Source: Amphiscolops sp. MND2022
Taxonomy: Eukaryota
DNA: 64,000 bases
Reading direction: 5' to 3'
Assembly: GCA_964187785.1 (NCBI GenBank)
Contig: OZ076409.1
Span: 15,626,001 to 15,690,000 of the forward strand
Shown: piece after piece, positions 36,150 to 59,264 of the stretch
How positions within the stretch are numbered: position 1 is the first letter of the stretch
Layout: every line of letters starts with the position of its first letter
Position numbers and translations under genes: made by a program
Notes under the pieces: generated by a model
The model's database searches: none
Seen by the model: only the letters and a program-made list of their open reading frames with translations
Told to the model about the DNA's origin: nothing

Positions 36150-39100
36150 CCCAAGGGCGTACAAACAACAACTGAGGGTTGATATCAGTAATAGAGCACC
36201 GAGTACTTATCGAATGCAAAAATTTAGCAAAGTTTTTTGCTAAATTTTCATCAGTTTCATTCATCAGCTGGTCATATTTGATGTCATTTGGGTAGTTATA
36301 GTAATATTCAGGTAAAAGTTCTTTACGCTTATCGTCAAAGCTCTCGCATTTCAAAACCAGATGATACTCACCGGGTTTACATCGAGTCTCACAAAAGGGA
36401 CAGGACTCTACTGGACAGTTCAGGAATTTCGATTTTACCAGGCAGCACACCTAAAGTTTGTTAGTTCAAATAGGGTTCAAACACAAGTCCGTGTTTATAT
36501 AGACGGTACTTATCGCATAGAGAGTTGCTTTGAAGCATAATCTGCCAAGTCTGAAAAGCTAGATCTTGACATTTTGCTTTGATGAACTTTTCAAATTCAT
36601 AATTGGATACTAGACCGACAAATTCTTCCGCCAAAGGGATTCAACAGATTATCAGAATCTGTTTAGTTCCCAAATGCCATTGCGTGGCTTCATTTCTATA
36701 ATGTAGCCAACGAAAAACAACGCATTACAGTTTATCGGGCGATGTGGTAACTTTTTTCCAGAAATTTATCATTCGTTTCCATACAGTAAAATTAGTTTCG
36801 TGGCGTCCCACTTCTACGTACACAATAGCCTTGGGCGCGCTCTTTCTACGTAGTTCTAACATCCGTCTCAAAAACTTTCAGTGGAACACTTCAATGTGCT
36901 CAATGTTTTCGTAACCCCACAGTTCACAACTGTATAGCAAAATTGGCAGTATCAGGCTGTCAAAGAGATGAAGCCTTATTCTCACTTGTAGATCCCCTTT
37001 ACTGAAAAGAATGTCAATTTTGAACAGAGCTTTTTTCGCCTTGTCAATATTATGCTTCATCGCGGCTTGAAAGTTGTTATTATATCTAAAAACAATCCTT
37101 AGGTAACAAAAAGTATCCACTCGTTCGATTGCTTGGCCGTGTACAGTGATAGCTTGATGCTTCCGGATTTTGCCTCGCTTTGCCAGTATTTATACACATG
37201 TTGTTCATCTCGCAGTACCTTAAAATTGCATTAATAGCGTTTTGCATATCATCAGTAGTTTCATTAAAAAGTAGGGTGTCGTCTGCATACAAAAGCAGGC
37301 AGAGTTTCAAAAAAACCTGCATATCCATTTCATCATAATCGAGACTTATACATGTGAACTTGGAGCAAACTATTCCTGAAAGTCGTTCATGAAAATGATG
37401 AAAAGCAGAGGCAAAAAGTTATCACCGTGTTTGACTCCTACGCGAAATTCCAATACATCTGTTAAGGATCCGTTGATATCAACACAAGCTTTGGTTTTCC
37501 GGTAGAGTTTCTTCATAACTGATAACACTTTTCCATTGATATCATAGTGGCGAAGTTTTTTCCGGAGAAGGCAATGATCAACTCGGTCAAACGCCTTCTC
37601 ATAGTAAACAAAAATCACAAAGTCATTTCTTTTCGGCTAGATAAGTCGATATTATAGCATATAGGACTAAGGCATGATCGCTGCAGCTCATATTTTTTCT
37701 AAAACCAGCTTGTTCTTGTCCTAAAATCTGTTTATTTTCCAACTCCTTTTCAATTTTTTCAGTGATAAGGGAAGTGAAAGGCTTACACAAACAGCTGGCA
37801 AGGGAAATACCTCTATAATTATCTTTCTTGTCTCCTTGTTTATAGAGAGGACGGTATATAGAGAGGGCCCAGTCATCCGGTACAACGCCACTTTCTAATA
37901 TCTTATTGAAAAATCGTGTTAGCAAAGTTATCACTTTTTCATGGGCATACTTCAAAAAATCTGGAAACACATCATCATGACCAGCTGATTTACCATTTCG
38001 CAATTTCTTCAGACAGGCAGTGACTTCTTCCACAGTGAAGTTTTTATTAATTTTGGGATTCGCAATGGTTTCACATGAAGGATAGTCTTGAATACTAAGG
38101 TGAGGGCTCGCGGCACTGTTGAGAGTTTTGAAGTGGTCAAAAATAACCGATTTTGCAATTGGTATTTTTCCATTATCCTGGTTAAAGCTTTTCAATAGAT
38201 TCCAATATACTTTTGGGTCTTTTATCTTTTTAGTTTGGAGTTCGGTACTAAACATCTCAGAAGCCAACAGTTGCCAGCGCTTCAGAAAACTTCTATAAAC
38301 TTTGAAACCTGATTTATGCTCCTCGTCATTATTGTCTCTTAGAGCGTTTCTTCGTATACGACGATCAATTGTTCGTTGCTCCTGACATTCCCAATCGAAC
38401 CAAAATTTTGCTCTTTCCTTTTCACTCTTTTTCACCTCATGCAGCGTACCTTGGCTGCACCACCTTGGTTGCGGAATCTTTAATGACCTGAACTATTTTG
38501 ACATTCGCTACATACAGAGTTTTTAGAGAACAAGGATCCTCCTGTTCCTCCTGTAAGCTATTTTCAAGTTCGATCAGCTCTTTCAAATTTATTTCCGAAG
38601 GGTAGAGTTCTTGCACTTCTCGGCTGCAATTTCTTTTTAGTTTTGGTACCACCACTGAATCGCCCGGCGGAGTTTCCGTCAACTCCGATAATTCTATTAC
38701 AACCAGACAATGCACATCAGATAGACATTCATCGAAGTTCCAAATAGTTATGTCTTTTATTAAATTCAAAGACGAACTATCTATTATGAAGTCATCAATC
38801 AGACGTTTACCATTGTGTGTTATACAGGTGATTTCTCCTATCCCTTTATCGGAACCAATCCTTCCGTTAACAAAACTCATTACTGTTGTGTTGCACAGAT
38901 CGAGCAGAAAACGGCCGTTCGTGTTGGTGATTTTCTCCCGGTTACCCCTGGAGGGAATTTTGTTGTGCTCGTTATCAAGCTCAACGAAATCCTCACTCAC
39001 CCCAGTACGTGCATTGAAGTCGCCTAAGAAGATGATATTAGTTTCACAGTTGTTAAAAGTCAAAACATCATTTCAGATTTTTTCGAAATTTTTAACATCC

Positions 39101-39430
39101 CAGTGCCTCGAACATTCACCAGGGACATAATATAATCCAAACCAGTAGTCAAAAGCATCTAGTTGTACACTGAGCCACAGTCCTAAATCAGTTTCAGTGA
39201 ACTGGTGTTTCACTGACTTGCGCACTATAAAAACTAGTCCTCTATATCCTTTCAGGTACAATTTATCTTTTCCTGTGAAGACTTCATGGGTATCGATATC
39301 GAGATCAAATGCATTGGAAAGTTATTCAGTAAGTCCTATTATGTCATGGCCATTGACTACGTGTTGGATTTCGCATATGTTAAGTTTGCTCTAATACCAC
39401 GGACATTCAGAAGAAGAGCACTGAGTCTCC
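36150..39430 (-). pseudogene. LINE ORF2 endonuclease-reverse transcriptase
   Basis: Fragments 39073-39261, 38437-39063, 37623-38435, 37370-37618, 37086-37328, 36878-37120, 36097-36450 in the expected domain order. Confidence 0.9.
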
Positions 39431-39450
39431 ATTTGAAGTTCGAGCTAAGT

Positions 39451-40443
39451 TTAGAGGGCGTTGATTGCTCTTCTTTGAACACTCTTTTCATTTGGGTAGA
39501 GTCCCATCCCAGTTTGCTTTTTCATCCAATACAGGGCTCTGGCTCTCTCTTTTGTTAGTTGCTCGCGGACAAAGACGTTGAAGTGATTCTTCGAAAATTT
39601 CGGTTCGTATATAAGGTTGTTAGTGTTCCGCGGAGTGAATTTTGCTATTATGGGTCTGGGTTCATCTGATCTTTGGTTCCGCGTGAGCAGTCGGTGGCTA
39701 ACAAACATCACCGTGCATGATTTTCACCCCCATTGCGAAAGCAGTTTGAATAAGTTTGTCGACGCAGTCTTCATTTTCACATTCTGTTAGACTGAAGAAA
39801 TACGCAATCCCGTCTGTTGTATTGCTCAATACTCTCTAATCTGCACTCAGTTGAAAAGCAGGGCACTGGCTCATTGTGTTCACTAGTCAGAGGATCTGCG
39901 GTGCCAGGAAAAGTTTTGTTTGAAATTTTTTTTCAAGAGCGAGTCAAGTTTTTCGGAGAGAAGATCTGTATAATCCCAGTTTTTTAGTGCGTTGACTTCA
40001 CTTTGCAACTGCTGATTTGCCACCATCAACCTGTCAAGGTTTGCTTCCGTTCGCGACAAGCTGTCGGCAGAGCAGCTGGCATTAGTCTTCAGGGTAGCTA
40101 TTTTGTCTTCAAGAACTTCCTGACTGGTTTTGAGATCTTTAGTTGACTGGCATATACTTGTTAGTTCCAATTGAATACTGTCGTTTCTTTCACCAATTGA
40201 AGTGGGCTTCTCTTTGATACTGTAGAGGTTTGTCTCATTGCAAGTATACAGCTTAGCAAACTGATCTTCGATGTTTTTGATAACAGCTTCATGAACACTT
40301 GCTTTCAGTGAAGGGAGAACAGTGTCTGCCAGTTCTTTGAAGTTGAGACCTGACATCGCAAGGGCGTTTCTCGAGGACGCTGATGAGCGGGAAGCGATTT
40401 TTGTAACAATGGGTGATTTTTTCTGGTTCTGAGATCTGAACAT
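39451..40443 (-). pseudogene. LINE ORF1 (coiled coil + RRM-like)
   Basis: Heptad-rich 39883-40443, then PRPIIAKF motif in 39451-39711, directly upstream of ORF2. Confidence 0.7.
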
Positions 40444-40454
40444 TTTGTCCGATA

Positions 40455-40637
40455 TGGACTAAGCCAAGTTTTCTAACACGGCAAGCCTGCAAGAAATGAA
40501 TCTCCGAAGGCCAGACCGTATCGGAAAAACCAACTATTAACCTATAGACCAGGCTGAGTTTCCTAACACGGCAAGCCAGCAAGACAAAAATCTCCGAAGG
40601 CTAGACCGTATCAGACAAACCTACTACTAACCTATTG
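40455..40637. repeat. ~90-bp diverged tandem duplication upstream of LINE ORF1
   Basis: CTAACACGGCAAGCC...TCTCCGAAGG..AGACCGTATC...TAACCTAT present twice. Confidence 0.8.
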
Positions 40638-43735: not shown

Positions 43736-44917
43736 GGATTTATATAGCTTTATATATGATATTTTTGAAATTGCATACATTTTCAGGTTTGTCTTGATTG
43801 TGTTAAACTTAACACCTGGTATAATGGAAAGTTATTAGCGGATATTCGTGGATCACAAAGAATGAAACTATCAGAACGTCAACAGAATTCGTTGACTCTT
43901 CAAGTTTTGCGTACTGATTTTGGTTTTTGAACGTGTGTCATACCCTTGCTTATCATACCCAGCAAAGTCTTCCCCTCATAATTTGCAGAGATGTCGCTCT
44001 TGGAATTTGCAGATCTAAGGCTGCTGACCAATTTTAAAATTTTAACGAAAAAGAAAATGGAAAACGGAAAATGATATTTATAACGGAATCCGTTAACGGA
44101 TTTGTAGAACTGGTCAGCACTGGTCTCTAATCTCTTCAAGCTGTTTAGATATGTTTTGATTGGGTTCACACGTGAGAAATTTAATCTCTGGAGTTCTGGT
44201 GTCGGTATCATTTTCACTGATTGTGTTTTCAACAGTATCTGCTACAGACCTCAGTTCATCGCTCCGAGAATTCACGTCATTTTAAAAAAAGTATTCGATA
44301 CTAGATCACTGTTGAGTCCTTTTTCTGGCCATTTTGACAAGCTTCTCTACTTCAACGTCATTTTTTTTTCGGAATATGACATTGTCAGACCAGCGGTAAT
44401 TTTACATTCACAGCGTTTGTCTTTCTAGGGACGGCATTTCTGGAATGAATCAGGTATCGTCACAACAGTTTGATTTATAATGATTGATGTGTTTACATCG
44501 GACTAGGAAAGCCGTGTGTCAAATTTACAAGTTCAAGGGTTCAAATACTCCTTTTATTGACATGACATGCGTTTTTCATGCGCCATAGACTGGAAATAGC
44601 AGTCATCAAATTACCGGTGAACACAAAGAAACGCAACGTACAAAAATTTTCGATCTCTCAAAGTTTCAAATTTTTATCAACAAAAAATTCAAAACATCTT
44701 TGAACGCTGCAAACAATCTTTCAAGTTTGCAACTTTTCTTCGAAGCGAAAGAACTTTCACACATTAAAAGAGGGAACCAAGTGACTGGTCAAGACGTCTA
44801 GACTTTTTATGATGGTTCGAACCATCCTGAGTTGAAGATGGGATTACGTAACAGCAGCTTCATTCTAAATGACTGACACAAAAAATTGAACGATTTTCAG
44901 TTTCTTGCTTACAAATA

Positions 44918-45645
44918 AGTAGTTAGCGAAATGCCGTTATAGGCCAAGCAACCAAAAAATTTCAAATCCCCAATACCCCCCTTTAGAGGCCCAACCAACA
45001 AAATTCAAAACAAATCAATAAAATTAGGCCGATTCGGGTCAAGCAACAAAAAATTTCAGAAGACCCAACCCCCCCCCTTTTAGAGGCATTTTTCCAAAAA
45101 CGAATCAACAAATTGGTGTTTTTACCAATGCAATGTAAAAGCAATGTAATATAAACAACTGGCGTGGACATAAATTTAGTTCCAATGGCTCAGTGGTTAG
45201 ACCACTAGAATTTTACGTTCGCGCAGCTTCACACGTGTTCGAGTCCGCGACAAAGCATATTTTAATTTAGCCATTAGTGGAGGGGGGTATATAAGGAAGA
45301 TAGTATATTATTTTTACTGAAAAGTTACTCATTGCTTAAAAGGATTTGTCATCCTTTCCTCCGCTTTCGAGCAGTATTGGCAATAGTAACGTGAGCTTTA
45401 CCAGGACACACTTTCGGGAGGGGAAAAGATTGTGTGTTACATAAACTGGAGCTCTATAGTGAATTAACCAGTGCGAGGTAAAATCCTGTGTAGTTAATTT
45501 GCGAGCAGTGGACAATTGTAGCACATGGAAAATAGTGTCGGTCGACGGAAGCCGCGTTAAGCTTTTGCGTTAAGCTTTCGCGTTAAGCTTTTTCGTTGGG
45601 CTTTTGCCTTAAGATAAGTTGCCTAATACCTCAACGGGAAACGAT
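44918..45645 (+). repeat. Polinton left TIR
   Basis: Reverse complement of ~58349-59042; 13-bp GCGTTAAGCTTTT repeats at the inner end; left copy has ~20 extra nt near the tip. Confidence 0.93.
45178..45263 (+). ncRNA. putative tRNA-like RNA polymerase III unit in left TIR
   Basis: A box TGGCTCAGTGG 45186-45196, B box GTTCGAGTCC 45237-45246, TTTT 45260-45263; no clean cloverleaf. Confidence 0.45.
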
Positions 45646-45727
45646 GTTTGAGAAAAACGTCAGAAACAAAAGTTATAGAGTATTCACACATAACAATGAA
45701 AAAACACTAATAAATGAATTATGTGTC

Positions 45728-46149
45728 ATGTCAATACCTCTCATTCAAAGAATTTGTTGAAAAATACAGACTAAAAAACGAAGCAACTTCTAATGTAAAA
45801 ATAAAAGAAATATGCTTCGCGCCTCCAGTGAATTAGGCGCTGCTTCGCACACAGCGTGTGGAATATACATCAGAGATGATAAGTTTACCACTCCTTCAGG
45901 TCTAGTTAACTTACATCGAACTGAAGGAACACATTGGGTCATGTTTGTTAACGAGTTCTATTTTGATTCATATGGATGACCTCCAACTAATGTACTTAAT
46001 CACATTAAAAAAGGTATCTATTCAGAATATCAATTTCAGACCGACGACAGTTATTGTGCAGCGTATTGTTTATATGTTTTATATCTCACAAAAATTATAG
46101 GCTTCAAAAATGCAGTACTAAATTTACACTATCAAACTTTCAAACCTAA
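45728..46149 (+). pseudogene. Polinton adenain-like cysteine protease
   Basis: Manual translation: GLVNLHRTEGTHWVMF..FYFDSYG*PP...YQFQTDDSYCAAYCLY (His, Asp, Gln, Cys motifs); internal stop; not in the ORF track. Confidence 0.85.
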
Positions 46150-46353
46150 TGAATGAAGAAAATTAATAATTATTCAGTTCAATATAAAATTATACATTTT
46201 CATAGAAATAATCCGAATCCGCGTAGCTTCGCGAATAAAAACCCCGAAGGCGAAAGCTGGCGCGCTTCGCATAAAAAAATATTATCAAAAGATAGGCAAG
46301 AATTCATAAATAACATAGCTGCTAGTGGATTCAAACAATTTAATCTATAATAA

Positions 46354-47411
46354 ATGGATCTATCAACCTTGGTATTTATTGATAAAAAAGAATATCTTCT
46401 TTTAAGTATTGCAAAATCTAATCAAGAAAATGTTAAAAATACTTATTCTAAACCACAAAAAACTCTAGAATTTAAAATGACCAAACAAAAAGAATTTTTC
46501 TCATTTGATGTTCCTCTCAATCTAGAAGAAAAGTCGATGATGGGGGTAACAAGTTTAGAAGTATACAACACCGTATATAATTTTACTGAAAAGAATAACA
46601 AATACAAAATCTTCTCAATTATGAACAACTCGATGAACTTTAGTTTGACACTGAAGTGGTGCCGAATATAAGAACTATATGAAATTTATGATTTAGAAAG
46701 TAATAAACTTTACTATGAATATATAGAAAAAGCTAATATATTTTCAACTACTAGTTCTAAAAAAAGAAGAAACTTCCAAAAAAAGGTTTTGACTATTTAA
46801 AGCAAATAAAGAGCAACACTGCTATAACTATTCCAAACTTTGAAATTGAGAATAAGTTAATTGAAATACAGTTAGTACCAGGTGTATACGAACTGATTGA
46901 AATAAACAATGCCATTAAGCAAATAATCTATGATTCGGATTATGACTTAGTTGACAAATCAAAATTCAGAAAAGATCTTGCAGTTTTTAGTTTTGAATTC
47001 AACATAATACCCGACACAATATCAATGAAATCAGTTTTAAAAACCTCAAATCCGATTAATTTTAACTCCGAATTTAACAAAGTCTTGGGATTTACAAACA
47101 AGGATTACCAAGCAGGAACTCACACTTGATAAAAACCAGTTATGATAACAACCACAGACAAAGTTCATCTGAAGTCTGACTGCGTAGATGGTTCAATTGT
47201 TAATGGTATACGAGAACAAATTCTATTTTCATTTAATTTAAGCGCACCTCCCGGATATAAAATAATAAAAGAACCCACAACTGTTTTGTATAAAAAGATA
47301 AACAAAACACGACTGGACACCATCCAATTTTTCCTTGAAGACTCCAACCACGACAGAGTTGATTTCAACTGGGAGACATTAACATTTACCAAGTTGATTC
47401 TAGTATTGTAA
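46354..47411 (+). pseudogene. Polinton minor capsid (penton-like) protein, frameshifted
   Basis: PLNLE..MGVTSLEVYNTVYN start and VHLKSDCVDGSIVNG...LFSF...PGYKI...IQFFLED...VDFN end, typical of the Polinton penton (from recall). Confidence 0.7.
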
Positions 47412-47470
47412 AAATAATTTCCAATCTTCTTAATGACAAAAACAAAAGTCAGTTTAGTTTAGAACCAATT

Positions 47471-48035
47471 ATGGATAATCCAAATTTTTTCACGATTAAC
47501 CCCTCCTATCCACAACAAGTTTTAAATAAAAATTCTACACTAACCTTCTTGGGTAGTGGTAACATATATGATCTAAATGACCCAAGTCTTCAATATTTTA
47601 TAACTAATACAAAATTTGATAGAGAAAAAAATAACAAGAACATAATTTATAGTTTCCTAAATGATATGAATTATAACATGAAGTATGGGGATAAAAAATC
47701 AATGAGATATTATTTTATTAAAGATTTGCATATTCAATACTATCAATTGGGAAGCGGATTGCCGAGCTACGCGCGAAAGCTATCGCGAAAGCTATCGCGA
47801 AGCAGTTCACAGAGCTACGCGCAAAAGCTATCGCGAAGCCATGCAAGTCAGTCCGTCTTCCTCTCATCTGATCCAGACGAATTAAGGATCAATTAAAACT
47901 TCTTTCTTTTGAAAAATTAGGAGGAAATGACAACCCTCAACTCAATGAACAAATCGTAGCAATTGCAGATAAACTATTGGAGTATGAATGCATTACAACA
48001 AATCAACACCAAAACATGATCTCCTCAATTATTTA
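47471..48035 (+). pseudogene. Polinton hypothetical protein, frameshifted
   Basis: ORF 47471-47896 continues after a shift as LKLLSFEKLGGNDNPQLNEQIVAIADKLLEY. Confidence 0.5.
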
Positions 48036-48625
48036 AAGGATCAGTTTGTGGAATAAAGATCTTGTAATTTGAATTAGATTCATTACAAATCCTGTAACTA
48101 CTCCCATTTTTATCTTCCGATCTATTTATTAATAAATAATTGAATTTTTCGTTCCATGCTTCACTGCACAAACGTTTGAATTCCCCATAAGAAATATCAA
48201 AACCTGCTATGTCCCTATGAATGTGTTCTACATCTTTTAGTGTTTGTTGAAATAAAATTATTATATTCGAATTGTTTCTAACTGTCTTTTTTGGTGCATC
48301 AAAATTACCCTGACATAAATAATAAACATCACACAACTTGTGTCTTCCTCTTGTAAAAAATGGATCAATCAATTTCTGGTTGGAGTGTAACATATCATCA
48401 AATACTACACAACACCCCCTATACTCTTCCAAATCCCCCACATTTTCTTCCACTTCTATTCCTGGCGAAGCTCCACCAATATCAATTTCCTCATATTGTT
48501 CCGGACTCCTCGTAATGATACGAATCTGTTTCTCAGGATCTTCCAAACGAATAAATCGTAATTTATTCAACAACAAATGAGTCCTACCACAAATTGATGG
48601 ACCAACTATTAATGTTCTATTACAC
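48025..48625 (-). CDS. A32/FtsK-like packaging ATPase 1
   Basis: NRTLIVGPSICGRT (Walker A, K changed to R) just upstream of the tracked ORF, VVFDD (Walker B), FFTRGRH, YYLCQ, VRNN. Confidence 0.85.
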
Positions 48626-49052
48626 TTATTATCATTATCATTATTATTTCTATTGTTGTGGGAACCTGCGTGGGAACCAGCACGGGAAGCAAGTCACCAT
48701 CAGTATGAGCAGGAACCTGCGCGAAACTACGCGAATAGCCTTGCGAATAGCCCTGCGAATACCCCTGTGTGTGAACCCGTGCGAAGCTATGCGAATAGCC
48801 CTGCGGATACAAGTGTTGTTTCTTAATGTGGGATCTTAAATAACTGTTATTTAATTCCTTATTACAAAATTCACAACTTACCTTTTTATTAAAACATTCT
48901 TTACAAGTACTGTACGTTTTACCATTTTTGTATGAATAGAAGTCCATCTTCATCTCATTACAAACTTTACATCTTTTTTTACTAGAGCAATCATCACACA
49001 CATTACTCTCACTACATTCATTACAGATTAAACATCTTGTTATCGTACTCAT
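48609..49052 (-). CDS. Cys-rich zinc-finger protein or domain, probably the N-terminus of ATPase 1
   Basis: CLIC, CDDC, CKVC, CKEC, and C2H2 CEFC...HIKKQH, then QGYS repeats. Confidence 0.7.
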   Translation of the reverse strand: MSTITRCLICNECSESNVCDDCSSKKRCKVCNEMKMDFYSYKNGKTYSTCKECFNKKVSCEFCNKELNNSYLRSHIKKQHLYPQGYSHSFARVHTQGYSQGYSQGYSRSFAQVPAHTDGDLLPVLVPTQVPTTIEIIMIMIISVIEH

Positions 49053-49317
49053 TTATTCAGTAAAAAATCACTAATAATCACCAATAATCACTCAGTATCA
49101 CTATGTAATCACTATGTTGAATCACTATGTATTCACTATACAATCACTAAGAGCATTTATTTTTTTAAGATTGAAGAGTATAGTGAAATTTAGAGAAAAT
49201 AAATGCTCTTAGTAATGCTTTGTGATTGTTTAGTGTTTCTATAATCACTAATTACTCAGATCTCTAAGAATCACTAAACAATCACTAATTACTCTAAGAA
49301 ATCACTATGGTTTCACT

Positions 49318-50277
49318 AAACATTATTTAGCTTATTTTTAGTAAAACTTTTTGCATGATCATATATACTTTTCTTAAAGTCCTCTTTAATTGAATTACTA
49401 ATTAGTGGTTGTTGCATACGCTCAACGTTGTTGTCTATTTTGGATTAATTCACGTTTATTTTCTTTTGTTTACAATAATATACATATTAAAAAGCTATGT
49501 TGTACGGTGTTATTTCAATTGTCTGGTCAGACATCTCCTCTAAAAATACCTTGAGTTTGTTGTATTCCTCACCAGTGAAAAAGTAACTTTCATAAGCAAC
49601 ATAATCTTCAGGGCCACACTTATGCTGTTTGCTAGAATCATAAATTAAATTGTATTTGTTGTTTAGTGTTTTGTACTTCTGACTCCTAGTGTCAAATTCA
49701 ATAATACCAAATTCTAACTGATCTCGGTATTGTTTCCACCTGTTAAGAATACTAGCATCCTTGATTGAATAGGTTTGTATTATGGTTTCAAAAAACTATC
49801 TGGGTTATTAATTGTTATGTAAATTTGAAACAATTCTCTCTTACAACAGGGAGAACATCCTTTTCATAGTGAGCAAGGTATATCACTTGAATTCCATGAT
49901 GTCTACCAAACCTAAATAAATCCTCTACTTTTGTTTTAAGACTTTTGTATGCACCTGCATCAAGCAGTATAACCGTTTTATTAGCAAGTGATTCAATGCC
50001 TATTGTTTCTAACTGCAACAAGGGTATAAAGTTGGAAGCAGGAAACTCTTTTTTATCTCGTCCAAATACTATGTAACTTCGTCTGCGAAGCTCTGCAATC
50101 TGTGACAAATAATGCTTTAGGAAAGATGTCTTCCCTGACGCACTACTTCCATAAATTAACATATGACAGTTTGTATTACTGACTGGTTGAGTTAGCGCTT
50201 CACCTTCTTGGTTTGCAAGATGAGAGTATTTGAACCCTTCAAATTGTAATAGTTTTCTATATATTTTTTTGTACCAT
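49318..50277 (-). pseudogene. A32/FtsK-like packaging ATPase 2, frameshifted
   Basis: HMLIYGSSASGKT (Walker A), VILLDAG (Walker B remnant), LFRFGRH, VIYLAHY, VREN; continues after a shift to ~49318. Confidence 0.82.
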
Positions 50278-50499
50278 TTAGGGCGAAAATAACGCCAGTA
50301 TACTATGAAGATAATAACAAGTATTATTATAAAATAAAAATAAACATTGCGTAGCTTCGCGGATTAATTTTCCGTAACCAACTGGCACGTTCGGTAGTGC
50401 GCCAGCTTTCGCCTTTGGACACCTTTGTGTCTTCCACCGAATTCTTGCGAGAACATCTGTGATAATCATCATTCATTTGTTCAGAAAAAAATTGTTAAA

Positions 50500-51383
50500 A
50501 ACGAATCGAAATAAGAAAGAAATCGCTAAAGCAATCACTAAAGAAATATTCTCTCTTTTGTAATCAAAAAGTTTCAAAGAATTCAAATACAAACTCACTA
50601 CAAAGATGAGTGTTGGAGTATTGATTTAATTGACCGCTCAAGTTTAAGCAAATACAACAAAAACTACAAGTTTATATTCACAAAAATTGACAATCATACT
50701 AAACATGCATGGGCGATTCCTCTTGAAGATAAGTCCGGAAAAATACAACAACTGCATTCAAGAATTCATTGGAAACTAGTGAAAGAAAACCACAAAAAGT
50801 GTGGAGTGAAAGAGGTAAAGAGTTTTACAACCAGACTTTTTTACACTACTTAAACGAGCAAAACATTCAAATTTATTCAACCTTTTCAGATTTGAAGGCT
50901 GTTTTTGTTGAACGCTTCAATAGAACACTTCTGAACTTAATCAAAGAACCAATGTTCATTGAGGGTAAAGGTAACTGGTTGAATCACATTAATATTGCTC
51001 TGAAAAAATATAATAATCGTGTCCATGGCACAACAAAAATGACACTTTTTGAAATGAGTTTTAATGAACCAATACCGCGAAGCTACACCAATCTGATACC
51101 CAATAATTATAATAAAATACCTAATATCCAAGTGGAGGATTTTGTAAGAGTTCCTGACAAACGCAATGTGTATAGTAAAGGTTATACAACAAATTGTAAT
51201 AGAGAACTTTTCAAAATGCACAAAATTATTTCAACGAATCCTGTAACATACACTTTGGAAGATGAAAACAAAGAAATTATTCAAGGAAAATACTATGAAC
51301 AAGAACTTTTAAGAAGTATATTCAACTTTGACTTCAACAACAAAACGTTAGAAAGTATGAATATTTTCCACAAATTGGAGTAA
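50500..51383 (+). pseudogene. Polinton retroviral-like (rve) integrase, frameshifted
   Basis: WSIDLID...IDNHTKHAWAIPL, KVWSERGKEFYN, KAVFVERFNRTL, YNNRVH, SKGYT, YYEQEL. Confidence 0.92.
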
Positions 51384-51418
51384 GTTTCCAACAATTTTCA
51401 CATAATATTTTATTATCA

Positions 51419-52686
51419 ATGAATTCTATAATTTCAGAATCAGTGGATACCCCAATGTTTTCTTTAAAAAGTAAATACTTACTCGAAAAACCTATTCATA
51501 AATATGATTTTATAAAGTACTCACCGAGTAGTTTGGCGACAATCAAACAAAATAATTCAAATTTTTCATTCAGCTTATCAAGAAAAGATGCATACATATG
51601 TTTACAAAACTCATATATAAGTTTAGAATTTGAAGTACTTAAAAACGATGATACAAGATTCAATGACGATGATGAAATAAGCTTGGTTAACTTTGGGCCC
51701 ATTGCTCTATTTAGTGAAGCTAAACTGACAACATCTAGTGGAAAACACCTAGAAAAAGTTGACAATTTGCATCCATATTGTTTAATGTATAAACTTCTGA
51801 CAAGTAGTCAACAAACTTCCCAGTTGATGTATGGGTTTGAAGAAAGTACTACTATCAGAAGACAAGAACTAACAAACAATGAGACAGAGAAAGAAACCTT
51901 TTTTGTGAGAAAAAAACTGAAAGACTTGTTTGGATTTGCGGATCAAGAAAAAATAACTTATGGATTGGGGTACACTCTTACTTTAAAACGGAACACTAAC
52001 AATGATGTTGTCTTTCGTACCAACGGTGTGAATGCTGCAAAAGTAGTTGTAAAAGACATAAGTTGGTATATTCCACACTACGTTCCGAGCTTAGAAAACC
52101 AACAACTTGTCATGGACCAAATTCTAAATAAAGACCCAACCGAGTTGAATTACACTGAACGTACCGTTTTTAGAAAAGATGTTAACACCAATAACGATTG
52201 GACATTTGAATTAGGTAATAGTGGTGGCGAAGCTGCACAACCAACACCAACTTTTGTGATTGTTGGAATCCAAGCTAGAAATAAAATTGATTCACAAACA
52301 CACGATAAGTCAACATTTGATAGATTTTCGGTTAGTAAGGCTGTTTGTAAAATAGGATCAGAAAAATATCCCGATGATGGAATAGACTGTGACTACGACA
52401 AATATGATCAAGCATACAGGAAAATTGAAAACTTTTATCACTTAAAAAGTGAAACTAACCTACTCAACCCATTTATTGATTTGCACAAATTCAGAAGAAG
52501 TTATAAAACTTTTATGTATTTGATTTATCCAAACAAAAAGATCACATTGCGAGTCAACCAATCCGTTTAGAATTTCAATTTTATGCTGCTTTTGGTGTAG
52601 CGGATTGTATAGCTTATGCCTTGGTTCCAACCCCAAAGTTAATAAGTATTAGTAGTGATGGCAAAGGCATTTTTATTTGATATGAG
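51419..52686 (+). pseudogene. Polinton major capsid protein (double jelly-roll), frameshift near the 3' end
   Basis: Beta-rich ~420 aa; ALFSEAKL...GKHLE, ISWYIPHYVPS, PTFVIVG, then FYVFDLSKQ in the shifted frame; size and position fit MCP. Confidence 0.78.
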
Positions 52687-52728
52687 AGGAATGATGAATT
52701 ATAATAATGTTATAAAAATGTATCAGAT

Positions 52729-52975
52729 TATGATAATAAATGATGATAATAAATGATGATAATAAATGATGATTCAAGGGTGAATGATAACAAATGATGA
52801 TAATAAATGATGATAATAAATGATGATAATAAATGATGATAATAAATGATGATAATAAATGATGATAATAAATGATGATTCAAGGGTGAATGATAACAAA
52901 TGATGCTAATAAATGATGATAATAAATGATGATAATAAATGATGATAATAAATGATGATAATAAATGATAAATGA
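52729..52975. repeat. 13-bp minisatellite (AAATGATGATAAT)n
   Basis: Many tandem units with two TTCAAGGGTG interruptions, between the convergent MCP and PolB genes. Confidence 0.92.
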
Positions 52976-53034
52976 TAGAGTACAATTAGCTTCGCGTAGC
53001 TTCGCGCAATCATAAAAGATGTTTGTCACGCCAG

Positions 53035-56000
53035 TTATAACAACAAATGGGCCCGATCACTTATCAGATTTAAAAGATCTTGATGATTCAATTTTTCTTT
53101 CAGAGTCCAAATGTTATAGTATATTTCTTCATCCCAGAGGCTTGTGCCATCCCTTGTGCTCAAATCTTTATAATTCAAACCAATAAATTTCAAACAATAT
53201 ATACAAGGACAATCACCTTGCTGGGTGTGTTTGTCCCAAGATAAACTTTGTTTTGGATTTAAGTACACTTGCTTGTCATCAGAAGGATTCAAAGCTAGTT
53301 TGTTTTGTTTCTCCACACTTAGTTTGTGTAAATTAGATCTAATTGAATAATTTGTTGCACTTGTTGTTCGGACATAAACAAACAACGTGTGTAATCTTCA
53401 CATTCAGGGGCTTTTTGTATTCCTTTTTGTTTCGCTTTTTGAATACTATTATAACTAAAAAATACGACTTTGATCGTAAAGCTGTGAAGCTATCTAACAC
53501 CAAAACTGGACTTGTTTCAATTTTCATTTTTCCTATAACTTTTTTGTTGGTTGGGTTGTACAGTTGATGAGCATTGTCTAGTTCACTGAAATCAAATTCA
53601 TCTTCGTTTTAAAAACTTAATTAAATTTTCCAACTGACTGTCAAAACTAAGAACAAAAGAATCTGTATCCATGTAGTGATGTTGTACTTTATTTTGCCAA
53701 TGTGGTTCTAAAGTATTGTAATAAAATTCATACCTTAGTAACTTACCTAGTTATAAAACTGTAAAACCTAAAAAAAATTGGTTTATCAAAGACTGTTTTT
53801 TCTCTATCAAATTTGTACACACTAAACACACTGTACCAATCCACAATACCTTTGAAACCTAACTTGGATTGTCGTTTTATTATTTGCTGTATTTGAGAGT
53901 GATCAATGAATTCTAGATTGACACGGTCTCTTACATTTTCCATAGTCTTACCAAAGAAAGCATTATTCATTAATTTGTACAAGTCTTTTTCAATGTTTGT
54001 TTTTGCTTTGGTGCGTTTTTGGGTGTTATGATCAGTGTATTTTGCTAACCATGGACTTTGCTTGAAGCGGTAGATTGTGTTAATGTGTGTTACTTTCATC
54101 CCCATTTTAGTGTAAAACTTGAACATCCTGTAGTGTATCATATATTTTTGTTTGTTTGTTAGGCCACACACAAGTTTCTGTGTTGGTTTGTAATTGTGCT
54201 GTTTTACACTATTCATATAATCTGAGAAACACTCTGGATCTGCTTTGGTTTGATGAGGACAAAGTGGAAAGTTTTCGGTTTTTTCTTTAATTTCAGATAG
54301 AAATTCTAAATCACATTCTATGAAGAATCCATATGGGTTGTTGTCTGGAATAAATCTAAAATCTTCTACTAGTTGTTCTAGTTCATACTCTTCTGGAAAA
54401 TATAGTTTTTCAAATGTGCCTGTAGGAAGGTGTTGACTCATTGCCCATCCATAAAGATTATTAGCGTCGATGTACAAGATTTGTTTATTTTCGTTTGATT
54501 CAACAAATCGATCACCCATGACACTTGAAATTCCTCCACGTATATTATTTTCCAATAACAGTAACAAGTGTTTATCTTTTATAAAGTCTAATTTTATTTT
54601 AGTCAACTTCAATCCTGCTTTCCATGTATACCCAGGAGCTGAGAAGGAGTACAATGGATTGATGCCATACTCTTCAGTGGATGTTTGCACAAAGTTCTCA
54701 AAGATATCAGTTAGTTGAAGGACATCCATTTTTAAGTATAACATAGTAAGTTGTTGAGGTGTTGTAATGTTGTATTTGTCAATTATTTGTTGGGTTCTTT
54801 TGATATCATCATCATACGGGTAAGATTGTGTTAATGTTGACCAATAGTCTTCTTTTGTTAGATTTAAATGTTCTTGGAAATTATTAGGACTGAATTTCTC
54901 ATATGGGTAGGCTAACTTCTTCCTAAACAAAACATCAATTAAACCCTCACTATTCATATACTTAAGAGTATCCAGAGATGCTATAAGTTTTTGTAGACTA
55001 GAAGAAAGAAATCGGTTTGAATCTAAAAATCTCAAACAACCTACTTGGACTGATACATAGTTTTCCATTGATTTTGGTATTATCGTCAGATTATAATTTT
55101 GATTGAATTATTCGGTTAGCAGTTGTTCAAAAATTAAATGCAATCATATCCAGAAAAGTTGTGGAAAAATATGGGAACAAATGAACTTCACTTTTTTACA
55201 ATTTAAATTACACCTGTTGTGAGCTGCTCCTCGGTACTTGCCTGTAAGATGATCGTAATCTCGAACTGTATCCTCACCGAGTGGATTTTCGCAATGCCAG
55301 CATATGGTAGATTGTTGAAAAGATTCTTTTTCTTCGGGGGTCATTTCAAGAGGAATATTAGTTTCGAAATATTCCGATGTAATTTTTTCTAACGTCAACA
55401 TTTCATTTACAAACTATGTTACGGCGCTTTGCGTAGCTTCGCGTTGGCCTTCGGTGCCTTCGGCAGTGCGATCTACTCCAAAGTATGAGTAGTACTCTTT
55501 CCCAAACGGTGAAATTAGATAAAAGCCTACTGCAATTGGAATTTGTTTAAATAAAACTTTGGGCGCGATAGCTACCGCAGCTTCGCGGTCACCTTTGGGC
55601 GCAGCTTCGTGGTCATCTGTTGGTTGATTAATACATTCAAAATCTGCATATACTCTCATTGGTGCAAGAACTTTCATATGATAATCTTCGAACTTAAAAT
55701 GATCCTTCCTGCTGAATGTGATTTTAGTTGGTTGTTGTTTTTCACAACAGTCAATGTGTTGATTGAGAATATCCTCAGAACTAAATGCAGTTAGACATCT
55801 TCTACACACCCATATCATGTGTGAACTTTTATTTATTAGACAGTGCCATTTTGTTATTAGGCAATAATGATTTTCAAATGGTAGCAAGTCAATTTGTGGT
55901 TCTAAGTAATTTTTCTTAATATGAATTGGTGCTGAAACTGTTCCGATGAGTTCAAAAACATTTACGTTTCAATTTTTTAAGGTTTCGAACTTGGGAATGT

Positions 56001-56919
56001 CTTTAACTTTCATAGGGAATTCTAATCCTTTCAGTTCGAGTTTGTTCATATGCAGTGAATAACTTGATGTTCTATTTTTATGATCCTCAACGGGACAAAG
56101 ATGTGCTAGGATGCACCATAGAAAACAATATTGATCATCATTTTTTATATTTATAATTGATTTAATATTCTTATATTTTTCTGGCAACTCAATGTGTGAA
56201 GAAGCTTGAATATCATTGACTTTATATATTTTTAATATAACATTGACAATACCGTTTAACACGAAACCTCATCCTTCTAATTGTTCATCATCTAATTTCT
56301 GCATTAATGTGTTGTGAATTGTATGATTTGTGCCGGAGGTGCTTTGCATGTGATTATAATTAAAATCTGAATCAACCCATTTGTGAAATACATTTTCTTC
56401 TCAATTAACTATTTTTGAAAACTTAGCTAAATAACTCAATTGATATTTATATCGGGGAAAGTAATTTTTATCTAGTAGTTCATTTATGTGATGTTCGAGA
56501 TTTTGTGTGTTAGTTGGATTTACTCTCAGTTTAATGTATGTTTTTTCATTCACAATTATTTTTACTCCATGCGATGCCAGTGAAGCTGTATTACCGAAGG
56601 CATTTTCTTGACTAATTTGCGTAGCTTCGCGATAGCTTTCGCGGTTGTTTTGACTTCTTAACGTGTGATTTTCACTTTGGAAATGTCTTGTTTTATCACT
56701 AATGTATTTACCACAATCATCACACCAAACTTTCTGCTGTTTAGTTTTGTTCTTGTGTTGGTCTGAACTTAAATGATTTGACTTGTCTGATAGGGGCATA
56801 AATTTATTACTTTTTTAACAATAATATTGATTTAATTTTTCTGAATGTTTTACTGATTTTAGTTGATCAGACTTGAAAGCTTTCTTATATTCAGAATTAC
56901 AGAGACTACAGTTCTCCAT
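53035..56919 (-). pseudogene. protein-primed family B DNA polymerase with N-terminal zinc fingers and an endonuclease-VII-like insert, fragmented
   Basis: YADFEC, DYDHLTGKYRGAAHNRCN, RFLDS, YIDANNLYGWAMSQ, KLMNNAFFGKT, HYMDTDS (~53660-53680); N-terminal CDDC...H fingers. Confidence 0.95.
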
Positions 56920-57036
56920 TTATTTGTAATAAATTTACGAATTTAATAGCAGTATATGTTTCAAAAGTATAAGTTCAATTATTGAGTGGTAATTTTTATT
57001 TTATTTTTCATGTTAAAATTGAATAAATTAATTCAT

Positions 57037-57486
57037 CTATAGAAATTCATCTATGTGTTTATCTTTTAAGCTAGTGGTAAATAATTGTCTAAAGTCATCA
57101 AGTGTTTTCTGAACAATATTGTACTTAAATTTATAATTTTGCTCCTTTTTCTTCAAATAACTGGAACAACTTCTAACAAGAATACCAGTTGCACAACCAA
57201 CTCCTGCAGTGATTGGAACAACTATAATGCCCACACCAGTAATACTTAGTGTAACGGATGCGGAAGTTGTTCCTATTATTATAGCACCATCTGTTGAGTT
57301 AATAATGTTATTTATTAGTTTGTATTTGGTGTATTTTTTCCTATATTTATTTTCTTCCAATTCATAATATTTCATCATTAGACTAATGTTTTGAATAGAA
57401 TTATTGAAACTAGATACTTTTTGTAATTCGCTTTGCAATCGCCTATTTATCATTGATTTTACATCATATGGTGCAGAGGGGGTCAT
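57037..57486 (-). CDS. Polinton protein with coiled coil and hydrophobic hairpin, function unknown
   Basis: PSAP at the N-terminus, Gly/Ala/Ile/Val-rich stretch AIIIGTTSASVTLSITGVGIIVVPITAGVGCATGILV between basic helices. Confidence 0.65.
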   Translation of the reverse strand: MTPSAPYDVKSMINRRLQSELQKVSSFNNSIQNISLMMKYYELEENKYRKKYTKYKLINNIINSTDGAIIIGTTSASVTLSITGVGIIVVPITAGVGCATGILVRSCSSYLKKKEQNYKFKYNIVQKTLDDFRQLFTTSLKDKHIDEFL

Positions 57487-57514
57487 TGAGGGATAGAGTT
57501 TTTGTTCCTTTTAT

Positions 57515-58231
57515 TAATCATATGAAATGAAATTTATTTCCGTTGGGGTTAATTTCATTCTGTGTTTCATATCAACAAGGTCTTTATAGGACTCTTTTTT
57601 CAATGACTCCACAATTGATTGTCTGGTAGAATATTCTAAATCAGACAGATGATATTCATCTTCTGAAGTAGGTATTGTTTTTCCATACTTTTCCTTTAAA
57701 TAGATTTCACTGAAAATTAGATAATTTGCAAAAACTTGATCTTTATTGGGAAAAGAATCGAATAAACTTTTGTCATAAAGCAGTTGAATTATGTTGTTAG
57801 CTATAGTAATTTTGTTTTGATCAGGCTATAAAGAGTATTATTCATTTCATTTTCACTTAAAATCATTCCAGCTTGACCTGGAGTTGACATAAACTTTAAG
57901 TTACGGTTGTTAACATTTCAAAACTATGGTTGTGTAAAAAATTTAGTACTTCTTTTACTAAAGCAGTTCCTTGTTCGGCGAAAATTTTTTTCATATTTTG
58001 TTCTAACTTATTTGTGGTTTTTGAAAGGTCTGAAAACTGGGAATATAAATCATTGAATAACTTTGCGTTTAATAAAACATTTTGAATTTCCTGTGGGTCT
58101 AGTATTTGGTCTAGCATTTTTTCTTCTATTAATTTCTCTTGATTTTCTATGTCATTTTCAAAATCACGTTGCAAATCTTCTTTTAATTCGGAATGGGTTA
58201 ATTGGGCTATTTTTTCTTGACTTTTTATCAT
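57515..58231 (-). pseudogene. Polinton hypothetical ORFs next to the right TIR
   Basis: Helical 111-aa ORF 57896-58231 and a frameshifted ORF starting MSTPGQAG at 57890. Confidence 0.45.
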
Positions 58232-58348
58232 ATCTTTCAGCTCCTGAAATTCTCTCAGTTTTAGCTGTTCACTAAAATAACCAAACTTATGAAGAGACGG
58301 AGTTTCATACAGTTATCAAGATGAAAAACTTAAAAGGGTGTCGAGAAA

Positions 58349-59042
58349 ATCATTTCTCGTTGAGGTATTAGGCAACTTATCTTAACGCAAAAGCTTAACG
58401 CGAAAGCTTAACGCAAAAGCTTAACGCGGCTTCCGTTGACCGACACTATATTCCATGTGCTACAGACGTCCACCGCTCGCAAATTAACTACACAGGATTT
58501 TACCTCGCATTGGTTAATTCACTAAAGAGCTCCAGTTTATGTAACACACAATCTTTTCCCCTCCCGAAAGTGTGTCCTGGTAAAGCTCACGTTACTATTG
58601 CCAATACTGCTCGAAAGCGGAGGAAAGGATGACAAATCCTTTTAAGCAATGAGTAACTTTTCAGTAAAAATAATATACTATCTTCCTTATATACCCCCCT
58701 CCACTAATGGCTAAATTAAAATATGCTTTGTCGCGGACTCGAACACGTGTGAAGCTGCGCGAACGTAAAATTCTAGTGGTCTAACCACTGAGCCATTGGA
58801 ACTAAATTTATGTCCACGCCAGTTGTTTATATTACATTGCTTTTACATTGCATTGGTAAAAACACCATATTGTTGATTTGTTTTTGGAAAAATGCCTCTA
58901 AAGGGGGGGGGGGTTGGGGTTTTTGAAATGTTTTGTTGCTTGGCCCGACTCGGCCTAATTTTAATGATTTGTTTGAATTTTGTTGGTTGGGCCTCTAAAG
59001 GGGGGTATTGGTTCTTTTGAAATTTTTTGGTCGCTAACTACT
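58349..59042 (-). repeat. Polinton right TIR
   Basis: Reverse complement of the left TIR. Confidence 0.93.
58718..58803 (-). ncRNA. putative tRNA-like Pol III unit in right TIR
   Basis: Mirror copy: A box 58795-58785, B box 58744-58735. Confidence 0.45.
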
Positions 59043-59264
59043 CAAATACGATTTTGAAGACGCAAACTTTTGAGCATTCTGTTTTGTTTGTTCACCTAGT
59101 TCACAACCTTCCAGTCATGGCTAAAAGTAGTTCTTCGAAATGTTTACGCTTTGACCTCAAGGCAACAAAGGGTCATAGGTTAGACATCAATACATGAACA
59201 ACTACTCGCACCCTTAAAGGAAAATTAAGACATATACATTTCCTTCCATTGGCACTTTGATAAA

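Follow-up and report, generated by a model that had tools for sequence, protein, structure and literature searches.

Short palindromes that accumulate in genomes, some of them in frame within genes, are represented by REP/RAYT, Rickettsia RPE, yeast mitochondrial GC clusters and cyanobacterial HIP1. Adenovirus VA RNA, like further viral RNAs made by Pol III, carries internal A and B boxes and forms no cloverleaf. The replication of Polintons is modelled with single-stranded intermediates, which, to our knowledge, have never been observed. Animal Polintons/Mavericks are described with (AGT)2 termini, a 6-bp target site duplication (TSD), terminal inverted repeats (TIRs), pPolB, integrase, ATPase, protease and both capsid proteins, with most copies degraded and some holding open frames, and the family investigated here shares these features, its protease being a putative one (PMC8097293). 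Stony-coral polintoviruses have undergone a massive expansion, with 2,686-2,802 MCP matches (PMC11131425), and the natural DNA mini-hairpins described in PMC13037366 are single sites, such as phage origins, ssiA and the N4 promoter. In this study, a 64,000-nucleotide stretch of Amphiscolops sp. MND2022 (contig OZ076409.1; the window) was observed to harbor a dead, internally deleted copy from a Polinton family, whose strongest oddity is a population of short palindromic inserts.

The window element and its genes

The element is a Polinton, as it displays AGTAGT-ended TIRs, a 6-bp TSD, a protein-primed PolB, an integrase, a double-jelly-roll MCP, a penton and an A32/FtsK ATPase. Its edges lie at 44918 (AGTAGT) and 59042 (where ACTACT finishes), and its features are as follows.

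44912..44917: left TSD CAAATA, 6-bp
44918..45648, + strand: left TIR, type-1, begins AGTAGT, 731 nt
45717..46156, + strand: putative adenain-type maturation protease, broken (frame change and stop), with homologues in IMG/VR Polinton-like contigs
46354..47390, + strand: penton (minor capsid protein), broken, 3' end gone; carries a helical insertion specific to the lineage
47385..47395: internal deletion junction; penton end, whole gene X and first 128 HYP1 codons gone
47390..48018, + strand: HYP1 remnant (about 375 aa in sister copies), with a conserved C-terminal motif common to other Polinton-like contigs
48028..49052, - strand: zinc finger and A32 packaging ATPase (ATP1), broken, a single gene in sister copies
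49340..50400, - strand: second A32-family ATPase (ATP2), broken, with an N-terminal hydrophobic helix and an extra C-terminal domain
50515..51383, + strand: rve integrase, broken; PF00665 in a sister copy
51422..52677, + strand: double-jelly-roll MCP, PF21738, frame change near the 3' end
52691..52995: 13-bp minisatellite separating the converging MCP and PolB genes
53038..56919, - strand: protein-primed PolB (1288 aa in sister copies), broken, with an N-terminal zinc finger, vOTU-like Cys/His motifs, EndoVII/HNH insert and palm
56900..57510, - strand: HYDRO, broken, with a central hydrophobic hairpin; homologues in 3/29 IMG/VR relatives
57514..58312, - strand: HYP54 (about 274 aa), broken, eleventh gene of the family, with no family match
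58346..59042, - strand: right TIR, 697 nt, containing the A/B-box unit in mirror orientation at 58718-58802
59043..59048: right TSD CAAATA, 6-bp

The termini, the CAAATA duplication and the TIRs of roughly 700 bp that an earlier sequence-only reading had reported are all borne out, with 661/688 aligned bases identical between the TIRs. A 6-bp TSD was also noticed in 13/13 callable sister copies (among 19 TIR pairs). The insertion target is a high-copy host repeat, split by the element; all five host-repeat paralogues examined (5/5) run uninterrupted across the site, with 3 extra bases there. In this genome the family comprises at least 520 TIR ends and hundreds of copies (2710 candidates in a loose first look); similar loads in corals rule out copy number as a record.

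The same reading had called the element complete, with a full virion module. Neither description holds, as a deletion at about 47390 joined the shortened penton to HYP1, two genes further on, at residue 129, and took gene X, which 25/26 other copies keep. Gene X (175-189 aa) is DUF5679-like, amphipathic, basic and core-protein-like, and presumably resembles a Cupiennin-type gene; its homologue in the relative L129 matches PF18930 (E 1.8e-13) and has a PLA2 domain, which gene X itself does not. The proposed gene order is correct, though it left out HYP54, and the ATPase1 and zinc finger, both present, form one fused gene in sister copies. The verdict of a dead copy also stands, since frame changes or truncations affect every one of the ten genes present, and PolB contains 7 in-frame stops as well as frame changes. 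Relatives with open frames were found in the same genome.

With reference to the individual genes, the window MCP frame matches PF21738 (E 1.3e-10); the best 120 of 1469 MCP matches are ENA proteins without names, and an MCP scan of viral contigs gave no match. The sister-copy penton was modelled by AlphaFold2 with a pLDDT of 81.9 from a 96-row alignment (an 8-sequence alignment gave 45), and the predicted fold matches the mavirus penton (E 1.6e-8), followed by adenovirus and Sputnik pentons, in keeping with a single-jelly-roll penton. The MCP and penton calls of the sequence-only reading stand, and its virion-forming ancestor is supported. The protease had no match in a Pfam search; its homologues adjoin Polinton core genes (down to E 8.5e-13), and its H-D-Q-C motif is one that we take to be adenain-type. 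The integrase of a sister copy matches PF00665 (E 5.8e-10), and that of the window copy is 78-90% identical to its sister-copy counterparts. HYDRO had only weak protein-atlas neighbours (unnamed viral and mollusc clusters at 0.90), and HYP54 had no usable match in the protein atlas.

PolB, the second ATPase and the TIR unit

Near full-length matches of PolB are PolB-like proteins of about 1200 aa at 31-43% identity, one of them with PF03175 (E 9e-26). In the Pfam search PF03175 was absent from the sister PolB and 14/15 relatives, direct Pfam and PDB sequence searches with PolB gave no match, and the 10 matching PolB clusters are unnamed or 'hypothetical'. The vOTU-like Cys and His motifs are conserved. 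The sequence-only reading had suggested that two ATPases, a zinc-finger/EndoVII PolB and a TIR-borne small RNA unit might define a distinct lineage. The PolB drops out of this list, both as lineage mark and as novelty, since EndoVII occurs in 13/15 related PolBs (the N-terminal zinc finger in 3/15) and an HNH insertion in pPolB2 is already published (PMC10748475). The other two traits are retained, neither having been found in relatives outside the lineage.

Both ATP1 and ATP2 match PF04665. ATP1 matches outside ATPases to E 5e-31 and is orthologous to the only ATPase that outside relatives have; ATP2, assigned to A32 with an hhalign probability of 98.2%, is a second ATPase of the membrane-anchor type. 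Exact-peptide scans of viral and metagenome contigs, which are insensitive to distant forms, found no ATP2 relatives outside the lineage, and for its C-terminal domain the best 120 of 247 matches, from a search likewise insensitive to distant forms, are ENA fragments 61-93% identical.

The TIR unit was placed as follows, its start being set by tRNA geometry.

45179..45263, + strand: Pol III type-2-promoter-like unit; A box 45186-45196, B box 45237-45246, T4 45260-45263

A pattern of A box, B box and T-run spaced as in tRNA genes matched twice in the 64 kb, both times in a TIR, and never in 100 shuffles, and the box positions are conserved in 23-27 of 27 TIR ends, with a degenerate B box in type-2 copies. 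The predicted fold reached z -3.0 for type-2, with a 5'/3' terminal stem, and z -0.56 and +0.5 for type-1, no better than shuffles. ARAGORN found 0 tRNA genes in the TIR, and Rfam matches were sub-threshold for both TIR types. A SINE origin was also rejected: exact A-box matches, judged on the best 100 of 120 and the best 100 of 403, were mostly inward-facing pairs 11-16 kb apart, indicating that the unit tracks TIRs. The unit is real as a feature of the letters and marks the lineage, and we regard it as a candidate Pol III gene. The left one contains a decayed palindromic 12-mer at 45221; a causal tie between this unit and the inserts is weakened because a homologous unit also lies at one end of a type-3 copy in which no exact 12-mer occurs. 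Searches of the literature outside subscription journals and Repbase, taking the best 10-15 of large result sets, retrieved nothing on TIR Pol III units, two ATPases or mini-hairpin inserts in Polintons.

Mini-hairpin units and their possible spread

The inserts, which the sequence-only reading had missed, are 12-14-nt palindromes of the form GCG-N(1-2)-AGCT-N(1-2)-CGC. Each strand carries one Hirao-type mini-hairpin sequence, GCGNAGC/GCGNNAGC, and is predicted to fold as one ultra-stable mini-hairpin. The two loop classes are exactly those of PMC13037366; a 3- or 4-base loop is chosen independently in each half, free variation occurs only at the loop N positions, and CpG decay accounts for most remaining differences. 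Loop frequencies (A 175, T 76, C 49, G 27) agree with the stability order A>G>C>T described in PMC13037366 only for first place. ViennaRNA, whose model does not include the sheared G-A pair, scored the units as ordinary weak hairpins (z -1.6 to +0.8). Examples in the element are listed below.

46221..46263: exact 12-mer (46221-46232) and 14-mer (46250-46263), intergenic
47773..47798: two chained 14-mers, period 12, within HYP1
50349..50412: exact 12-mer (50349-50360) and 14-mer (50399-50412), near the ATP2 5' end
52994..53005: exact 12-mer; 2 other copies show a 12-nt gap
55431..55610: 12-mer at 55431 and 12/14-mer cluster at 55565-55610, in frame in PolB; empty alleles exist
56619..56642: chained 12-mer and 14-mer, in frame, PolB N-terminal region

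Allowing up to 1 mismatch, 16 unit sites were found in the 14.1-kb element and 0 in the 49.9 kb outside. Genome-wide, the 14-mer had 5326 sites against 226 for the control, another genome-wide count of the units gave 1638+1683 against 61+61, and the sites checked lie almost all within Polintons of the window's family. In 11 copies (169 kb), GCGNAGC occurred 327 times and GCGNNAGC 268 times, compared with 13 and 14 in 72 kb of host DNA; CG-closed loops were not enriched (5). The units are confined to two of three sampled lineages, with 0 in 79 kb of type 3 (6 copies) and 0 in 368 kb of 29 outside relatives, and the chained 20-mer had 0 matches in viral contigs.

The palindrome with its two CpGs could suggest a double-stranded binding site for a dimeric protein, be it a factor of the host (E2F-like or reading CpG) or a zinc finger of the element, with sites building up like bacterial uptake sequences or cyanobacterial HIP1; GCGAAAG-type halves include TTTCGC, which we take to be an E2F-like core. 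We consider this improbable, as the halves vary their spacer independently (12-, 13- and 14-mers), units appear as whole blunt inserts and not via point changes, the majority lie within genes and not promoters, and type 3 keeps the same zinc-finger genes with no units.

The units behave as blunt 12-nt presence/absence inserts with no target duplication, in 48 coding site clusters among 21 copies, of which 24 are limited to one or two copies and none occurs in more than nine. Where an empty allele exists, 62/72 flank contexts show zero spacer; 81/153 contexts, partly non-independent, have no empty allele in the sample. Among coding 14-mers 69/100 are chained, so slippage acts. The PolB tree (a quick version that left out L053 and L037 and had no named reference sequences) neither supported nor rejected a T1+T2 clade (p-AU 0.435) and did not place the root of the three lineages, so that units may have been lost in type 3. 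Both points would suit an origin by slippage and decay only, with a GC-rich repeat that arose a single time in an ancestor, expanded locally and was later deleted precisely from many copies. Such an origin, or an assembly artefact, is to us the least probable of the readings: isolated inserts lie between unrelated flanks with no junction repeat, several of the 48 separate clusters hold units in both orientations, and an artefact would not look like restriction to a single transposon family, CpG decay and frame filtering. As to the filtering, frameshifting 13-mers number 0 coding and 14 non-coding, and 12-mers 87 coding and 56 non-coding. In the TIRs, 9 inserts occur as mirror images at the two ends of the same copy, which points to gain before integration; six are one-sided, compatible with gain, loss or recombination.

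It is also conceivable, though unlikely, that the units are adaptive, shielding displaced single strands from nucleases, excluding SSB, or serving re-priming or packaging, such that gaining lineages out-replicate others; an insertion route would still be required, while selection would account for the density of units. Mini-hairpins are described as nuclease-resistant, poor SSB binders found at phage origins and N4 promoters (PMC13037366), fixed unit positions stay constant beside diverse N positions, type 2, the richest in units, leads in number of TIR ends and its TIRs are nearly identical, and a small number of single GCGAAGC hairpins occur in type 3 (15 against about 1 expected). Nevertheless, no unit site is fixed across copies, type 3 and the 29 outside relatives persist without units, and the units showed no regular spacing.

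Our best explanation, to which we give about an even chance, is that the units likely spread as self-copying micro-insertions during the Polinton's own replication, a likely mode of spread that we infer from their pattern. Strand-displacement synthesis by pPolB would expose single strands on which GCGNAGC/GCGNNAGC could fold. Each unit edge would be the 5' end of one hairpin, so that resection or a polymerase template switch would, as we propose, stop exactly there, leaving or copying a 12-14-nt piece that would be joined blunt into breaks of co-replicating genomes. Protein-level selection would retain only in-frame inserts in tolerant loops, slippage would convert chained 14-mers to low-complexity tracts of 12-nt period, recombination and TIR copying would shift unit sites between ends and copies, and, after integration, CpG decay wears units down. 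We found no TSD or dedicated transposase for the units, no extra gene in carrier lineages relative to type 3, and neither a mobilising enzyme nor a donor; unit-free type-3 copies possess the EndoVII motif and the two zinc fingers just as carrier copies do. Only tentatively do we go further and view the double mini-hairpin as a parasite that itself lives on a parasite, a DNA element defined by its structure. The Polinton replication/repair machinery would excise or copy this element at the hairpin edges and paste it blunt into other Polinton genomes, and the element would have rewritten protein loops thousands of times and raised lineage GC from about 27% to 33%. We know of no mobile element shorter than this 12-14-nt unit.

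An element-confined motif defined by folding in single strands, once per strand, would be a sequence fossil of the single-stranded intermediate. The units also offer a countable marker (presence/absence at dozens of sites, TIR mirroring) by which recombination between Polintons that replicate together can be followed, and they supply viral proteins with loop insertions of four residues; the second ATPase and the Pol III-like unit add adenovirus-like parallels. As far as we could find, Hirao mini-hairpins would here be used in nature on a large scale for the first time, the 2026 review describing single phage/plasmid sites (PMC13037366).

Comparison with known systems

Compared with REP, RPE and GC clusters, the units are much shorter, and unlike these systems and HIP1 they have no TSD, no dedicated transposase was found, and they are limited to a eukaryotic virus-like element. 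The TIR unit shares with VA RNA and viral Pol III RNAs the internal A and B boxes, no cloverleaf and, in type-2, a predicted 5'/3' terminal stem; in contrast to VA RNA, the candidate unit is placed in both TIRs, and its type-1 form folds no better than shuffles. The window family differs from the animal Polintons of PMC8097293 in its 11 genes, other order, two A32 ATPases, TIR A/B-box unit and iterated mini-hairpin inserts. Beta adintoviruses, as described in PMC8502044, may resemble the window family in a PolB with no PF03175 match and with OTU-like Cys/His motifs; of their accessory genes, GasderminX and Cupiennin, the second may have a counterpart in gene X, whose amphipathic basic segment and lack of a PLA2 domain would suit a Cupiennin-type gene; a second FtsK goes unmentioned in the searched text of that paper, as opposed to two ATPases here. 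Compared by domain type, the HNH-bearing pPolB2 Polintons of nematodes and oomycetes described in PMC10748475 likewise carry an HNH/EndoVII-type nuclease domain inside pPolB, whereas no fusogen gene was identified in the window family. Stony-coral polintoviruses share the DUF5679 gene and massive expansion, and the main text of PMC11131425 does not contain 'palindrom', the palindromic inserts being the feature of the window family. The mini-hairpins described in PMC13037366 belong to the same sequence classes, GCGNAGC/GCGNNAGC, including GCGAAGC, GCGAAAGC, GCGACAGC, GCGATAGC and GCGTTAGC; those of the window family, in contrast, are paired back to back on opposite strands and occur in thousands as polymorphic inserts.

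Gene content and state of the window copy

It is the mini-hairpin inserts that make this finding notable, and not the window copy itself, which is an ordinary fossil. That the element is a Polinton is close to certain. Six of the seven Polinton features tested are present, with the protease as a candidate seventh, and its class is probably Beta in the sense of PMC8502044.

Features of the window (window coordinates, strand in brackets)
72-1442 (+): hAT transposase with BED finger, single 456-aa open frame
2213-2743 and 17115-17690 (+): dynein heavy-chain exons
28617-29168 (-): rhodopsin-type GPCR frame
29783-33783 (+): frames resembling decayed Gypsy gag-pol (judged by eye)
37623-40458 (-): endonuclease and RT frames, LINE-like on visual inspection
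44616-44917 and 59043 onward: host repeat split by the Polinton
44918-59042: Polinton, type 1, with AGTAGT at 44918 and ACTACT finishing at 59042
44918-45648 and 58346-59042: TIRs of 731 and 697 nt
45553-45617 and 58381-58428: 13-bp tandem units of the inner TIR, with the hairpin grammar of the unit treated below and longer loops

The ends were as the sequence-only reading had described them, with AGTAGT termini, CAAATA flanking both sides and TIRs of about 700 bp that agree at 661 of the 688 bases aligned. In the host, an animal whose assembly spans 1.07 Gb, the Polinton was inserted within a high-copy host repeat, for which all five paralogues examined span the site with three additional bases. 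The split repeat, with 2087 candidates often found as inverted pairs, is probably a non-autonomous DNA transposon.

Natural open frames of fetched sister copies, each kept separate, served as the gene references. The carrier lineages (types 1 and 2, which bear the mini-hairpin unit) have 11 genes in the order protease, penton, X, HYP1 (+); ZnF-ATPase, ATP2 (-); integrase, MCP (+); PolB, HYDRO, HYP54 (-). The window copy had been called complete, which it is not: near 47390, penton residue 331 runs directly into residue 129 of HYP1, and the copy has lost gene X, which 25 of the 26 others keep. None of the ten genes left is intact, and PolB additionally has 7 in-frame stops. The earlier view of a frameshifted, dead copy stands. 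Its MCP and penton calls also stand up to the jelly-roll check: MCP matches PF21738, and a sister-copy penton model (pLDDT 81.9, built on a 96-row alignment) has a fold matching penton-type chains of mavirus, PBCV-1, Sputnik and adenovirus. The integrase matches PF00665. Among copies the penton ranges from 337 to 576 aa (L029:1989-3716, L052:4819-6126), owing to a helical insertion that expands and that outside relatives lack.

The EndoVII-bearing PolB had been offered as a lineage marker, and this we could not uphold; it is ordinary, because 13 of 15 related PolBs carry EndoVII and PMC10748475 already describes an HNH insert within pPolB2. The TP-vOTU-Exo-palm layout is likewise described in 10.1101/2024.03.18.585575, and Cys and His motifs are conserved in the sequences of the family PolB.

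The two ATPases were confirmed. ATP1 (the ZnF-A32 ATPase) and ATP2 both match A32, with a mutual identity of about 22%. ATP1 matched one frame in 23 of 29 IMG/VR relatives, to E 5e-31, while ATP2 matched weakly (best 3e-4) and within the ATP1-matching frame; no second ATPase frame was detected at any of the 29 loci, many of which are partial. ATP2 is nonetheless a true A32 homologue (probability 98.2%), and with its hydrophobic N-terminal helix and additional C-terminal domain it may be a putative membrane-tethered partner of the packaging motor.

Lineages in the host genome and their terminal repeats

An MCP search of the genome gave 2710 loose candidates, and the 108 scored, the window itself aside, showed 75-85% identity. 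Exact A-box patterns marked 120 type-1 and 403 type-2 TIR ends, and therefore at least about 260 elements; corals bear comparable Polinton loads, as PMC11131425 reports. TIR divergence within a copy is 4% in the window (type 1) and mostly 0-2% in type-2 pairs. Type 3 (L209-L218, L047-L048) has 27% GC, short TIRs (130-215 nt) and the order INT-HYP54-HYDRO-MCP, in which HYP54 and HYDRO are relocated between integrase and MCP and are far more diverged (39-48%) than the other genes. No root was supported for the tree of the three lineages.

Among the fetched loci, L034-L036, L047 and L219 show internal tandem duplications of multi-gene blocks, and L031:4914-9998 is a large insertion with 614- and 1080-aa open frames in place of the X-HYP1 region. 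A second, distant PolB (23-29% identity) adjoining a family copy at L038:7346-8342 is another Polinton group in the same genome. The nearest outside layouts, L129 and L132 from IMG/VR, have in common protease, penton, HYP1, HYDRO, MCP and ATP1; gene X of L129 carries DUF5679 and a PLA2 domain.

The small RNA unit proposed for the TIRs stands as a candidate Pol III unit. Only two places in the window combine an A box, a B box and T4 at tRNA spacing, one in each TIR, and 100 shuffles gave no such combination, but the predicted fold of this type-1 unit is no better than shuffles. The boxes are well conserved, yet no better than the surrounding TIR core. In type-2 TIRs the unit is alignable to that of type 1 with a degenerate B box, and it is predicted to fold as a rod closed by a terminal stem of 11 bp (z -3.0). 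The window unit matches neither tRNAs nor any Rfam family. Window 45118-45367 has no mismatch to the right TIR in this 250-nt core and 15/170 in the outer part, and across all 10 pairs pooled the outer 200 nt diverge by 10.5% against about 3%, which suggests chimeric ends or conversion. At about 2280-2720 of L213 (type 3), a hybrid TIR-core unit with a type-2-like A-box head and then a type-1 downstream region is found at one end only.

The mini-hairpin unit

The sequence-only reading listed the Polinton genes but overlooked a palindrome of 12-14 nt, GCG-N(1-2)-AGCT-N(1-2)-CGC, in which each strand carries one GC-GNA-GC or GC-GNNA-GC motif and the two motifs overlap. With at most one mismatch, its 12-mer form GCGNAGCTTCGC has 16 sites in the element and none in the remaining 49.9 kb of the window. 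Ten further copies hold 151 unit sites over 155 kb, whereas 22 kb of flanking DNA has none. Genome-wide, the 12-mer counts were 1638+1683 against 61+61 for the control, and those of the 14-mer 5326 against 226. Every unit site adjoins Polinton sequence at 35 of 41 loci checked; the other six have isolated sites, five of them fetched for being isolated, consistent with background. Relative to host DNA, both mini-hairpin classes show an 8- to 10-fold excess, and relative to shuffles one of 20- to 40-fold; CG-closed loops show no enrichment. According to PMC13037366, GC-GNA-GC and GC-GNNA-GC sequences form extraordinarily stable mini-hairpins, nuclease-resistant and poorly bound by SSB; that the units are adaptive, protecting single strands, is possible though on the unlikely side, and compatible with their arising by micro-insertion. 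Other short motifs are repeated 7-13 times in L137/L138 and L134 (IMG/VR).

The N positions of the loops are free, changes elsewhere are mostly CpG decay, and loop length varies independently in each half of the unit; a duplex protein-binding site is an unlikely reading of this pattern. In 21 copies there were 87 coding and 56 non-coding 12-mers, 0 and 14 13-mers, and 100 and 42 14-mers; 69 of the 100 coding 14-mers are joined in chains of period 12.

The unit also behaves as a presence/absence insert. At nine of the 16 window sites, at least one other copy aligns with a gap of exactly 12 nt, and 64 of 109 rows of gene alignment indels of 6-60 nt (pairwise, rows partly redundant) are multiples of 12. 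An empty allele is present for 72 of 153 flank contexts, and for the other 81 there was none among the sampled copies; the flanks directly abut in 62 of the 72, and therefore no target duplication is involved. The coding sites of the 21 copies form 48 clusters, 13 single-copy, 11 two-copy and none in more than nine copies, with only two in MCP and none mapped to penton or X. Slippage with parallel loss, as the source of this pattern, is judged quite improbable. Of the inserts in 19 type-2 TIR pairs, nine recur in mirror image in the partner TIR; six are one-sided, five of these at the inner TIR edge. The double unit was not found in 368 kb from 29 outside relatives or in six type-3 copies (79 kb). 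Single hairpins do occur in type 3, 15 in all, and a recurring one there has a 4-bp stem and a GAA loop. Overall, the enrichment and indel behaviour of the unit are near certain.

Origin of the inserts

We propose, at about even chances, that the unit is a self-copying structural micro-insertion which would arise in a replicating, partly single-stranded form of the element; beyond the sequence pattern we infer every step. Such micro-insertion would account for the one hairpin per strand, the coincidence of unit edges with hairpin 5' ends, the blunt junctions and confinement to the element, and the mirrored TIR inserts and frame filtering.

In a literature search of partial coverage, we came across no report of Polintons with mini-hairpin inserts, with Pol III units in their TIRs or with two ATPases, and PMC3671162 and 10.64898/2026.10.13.758929 gave no further information on them. 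Placement of the unit as a MITE/REP-type mobile element was considered and rejected, although in its manner of working the unit resembles iterated palindromes of the REP/RPE or HIP1 type.
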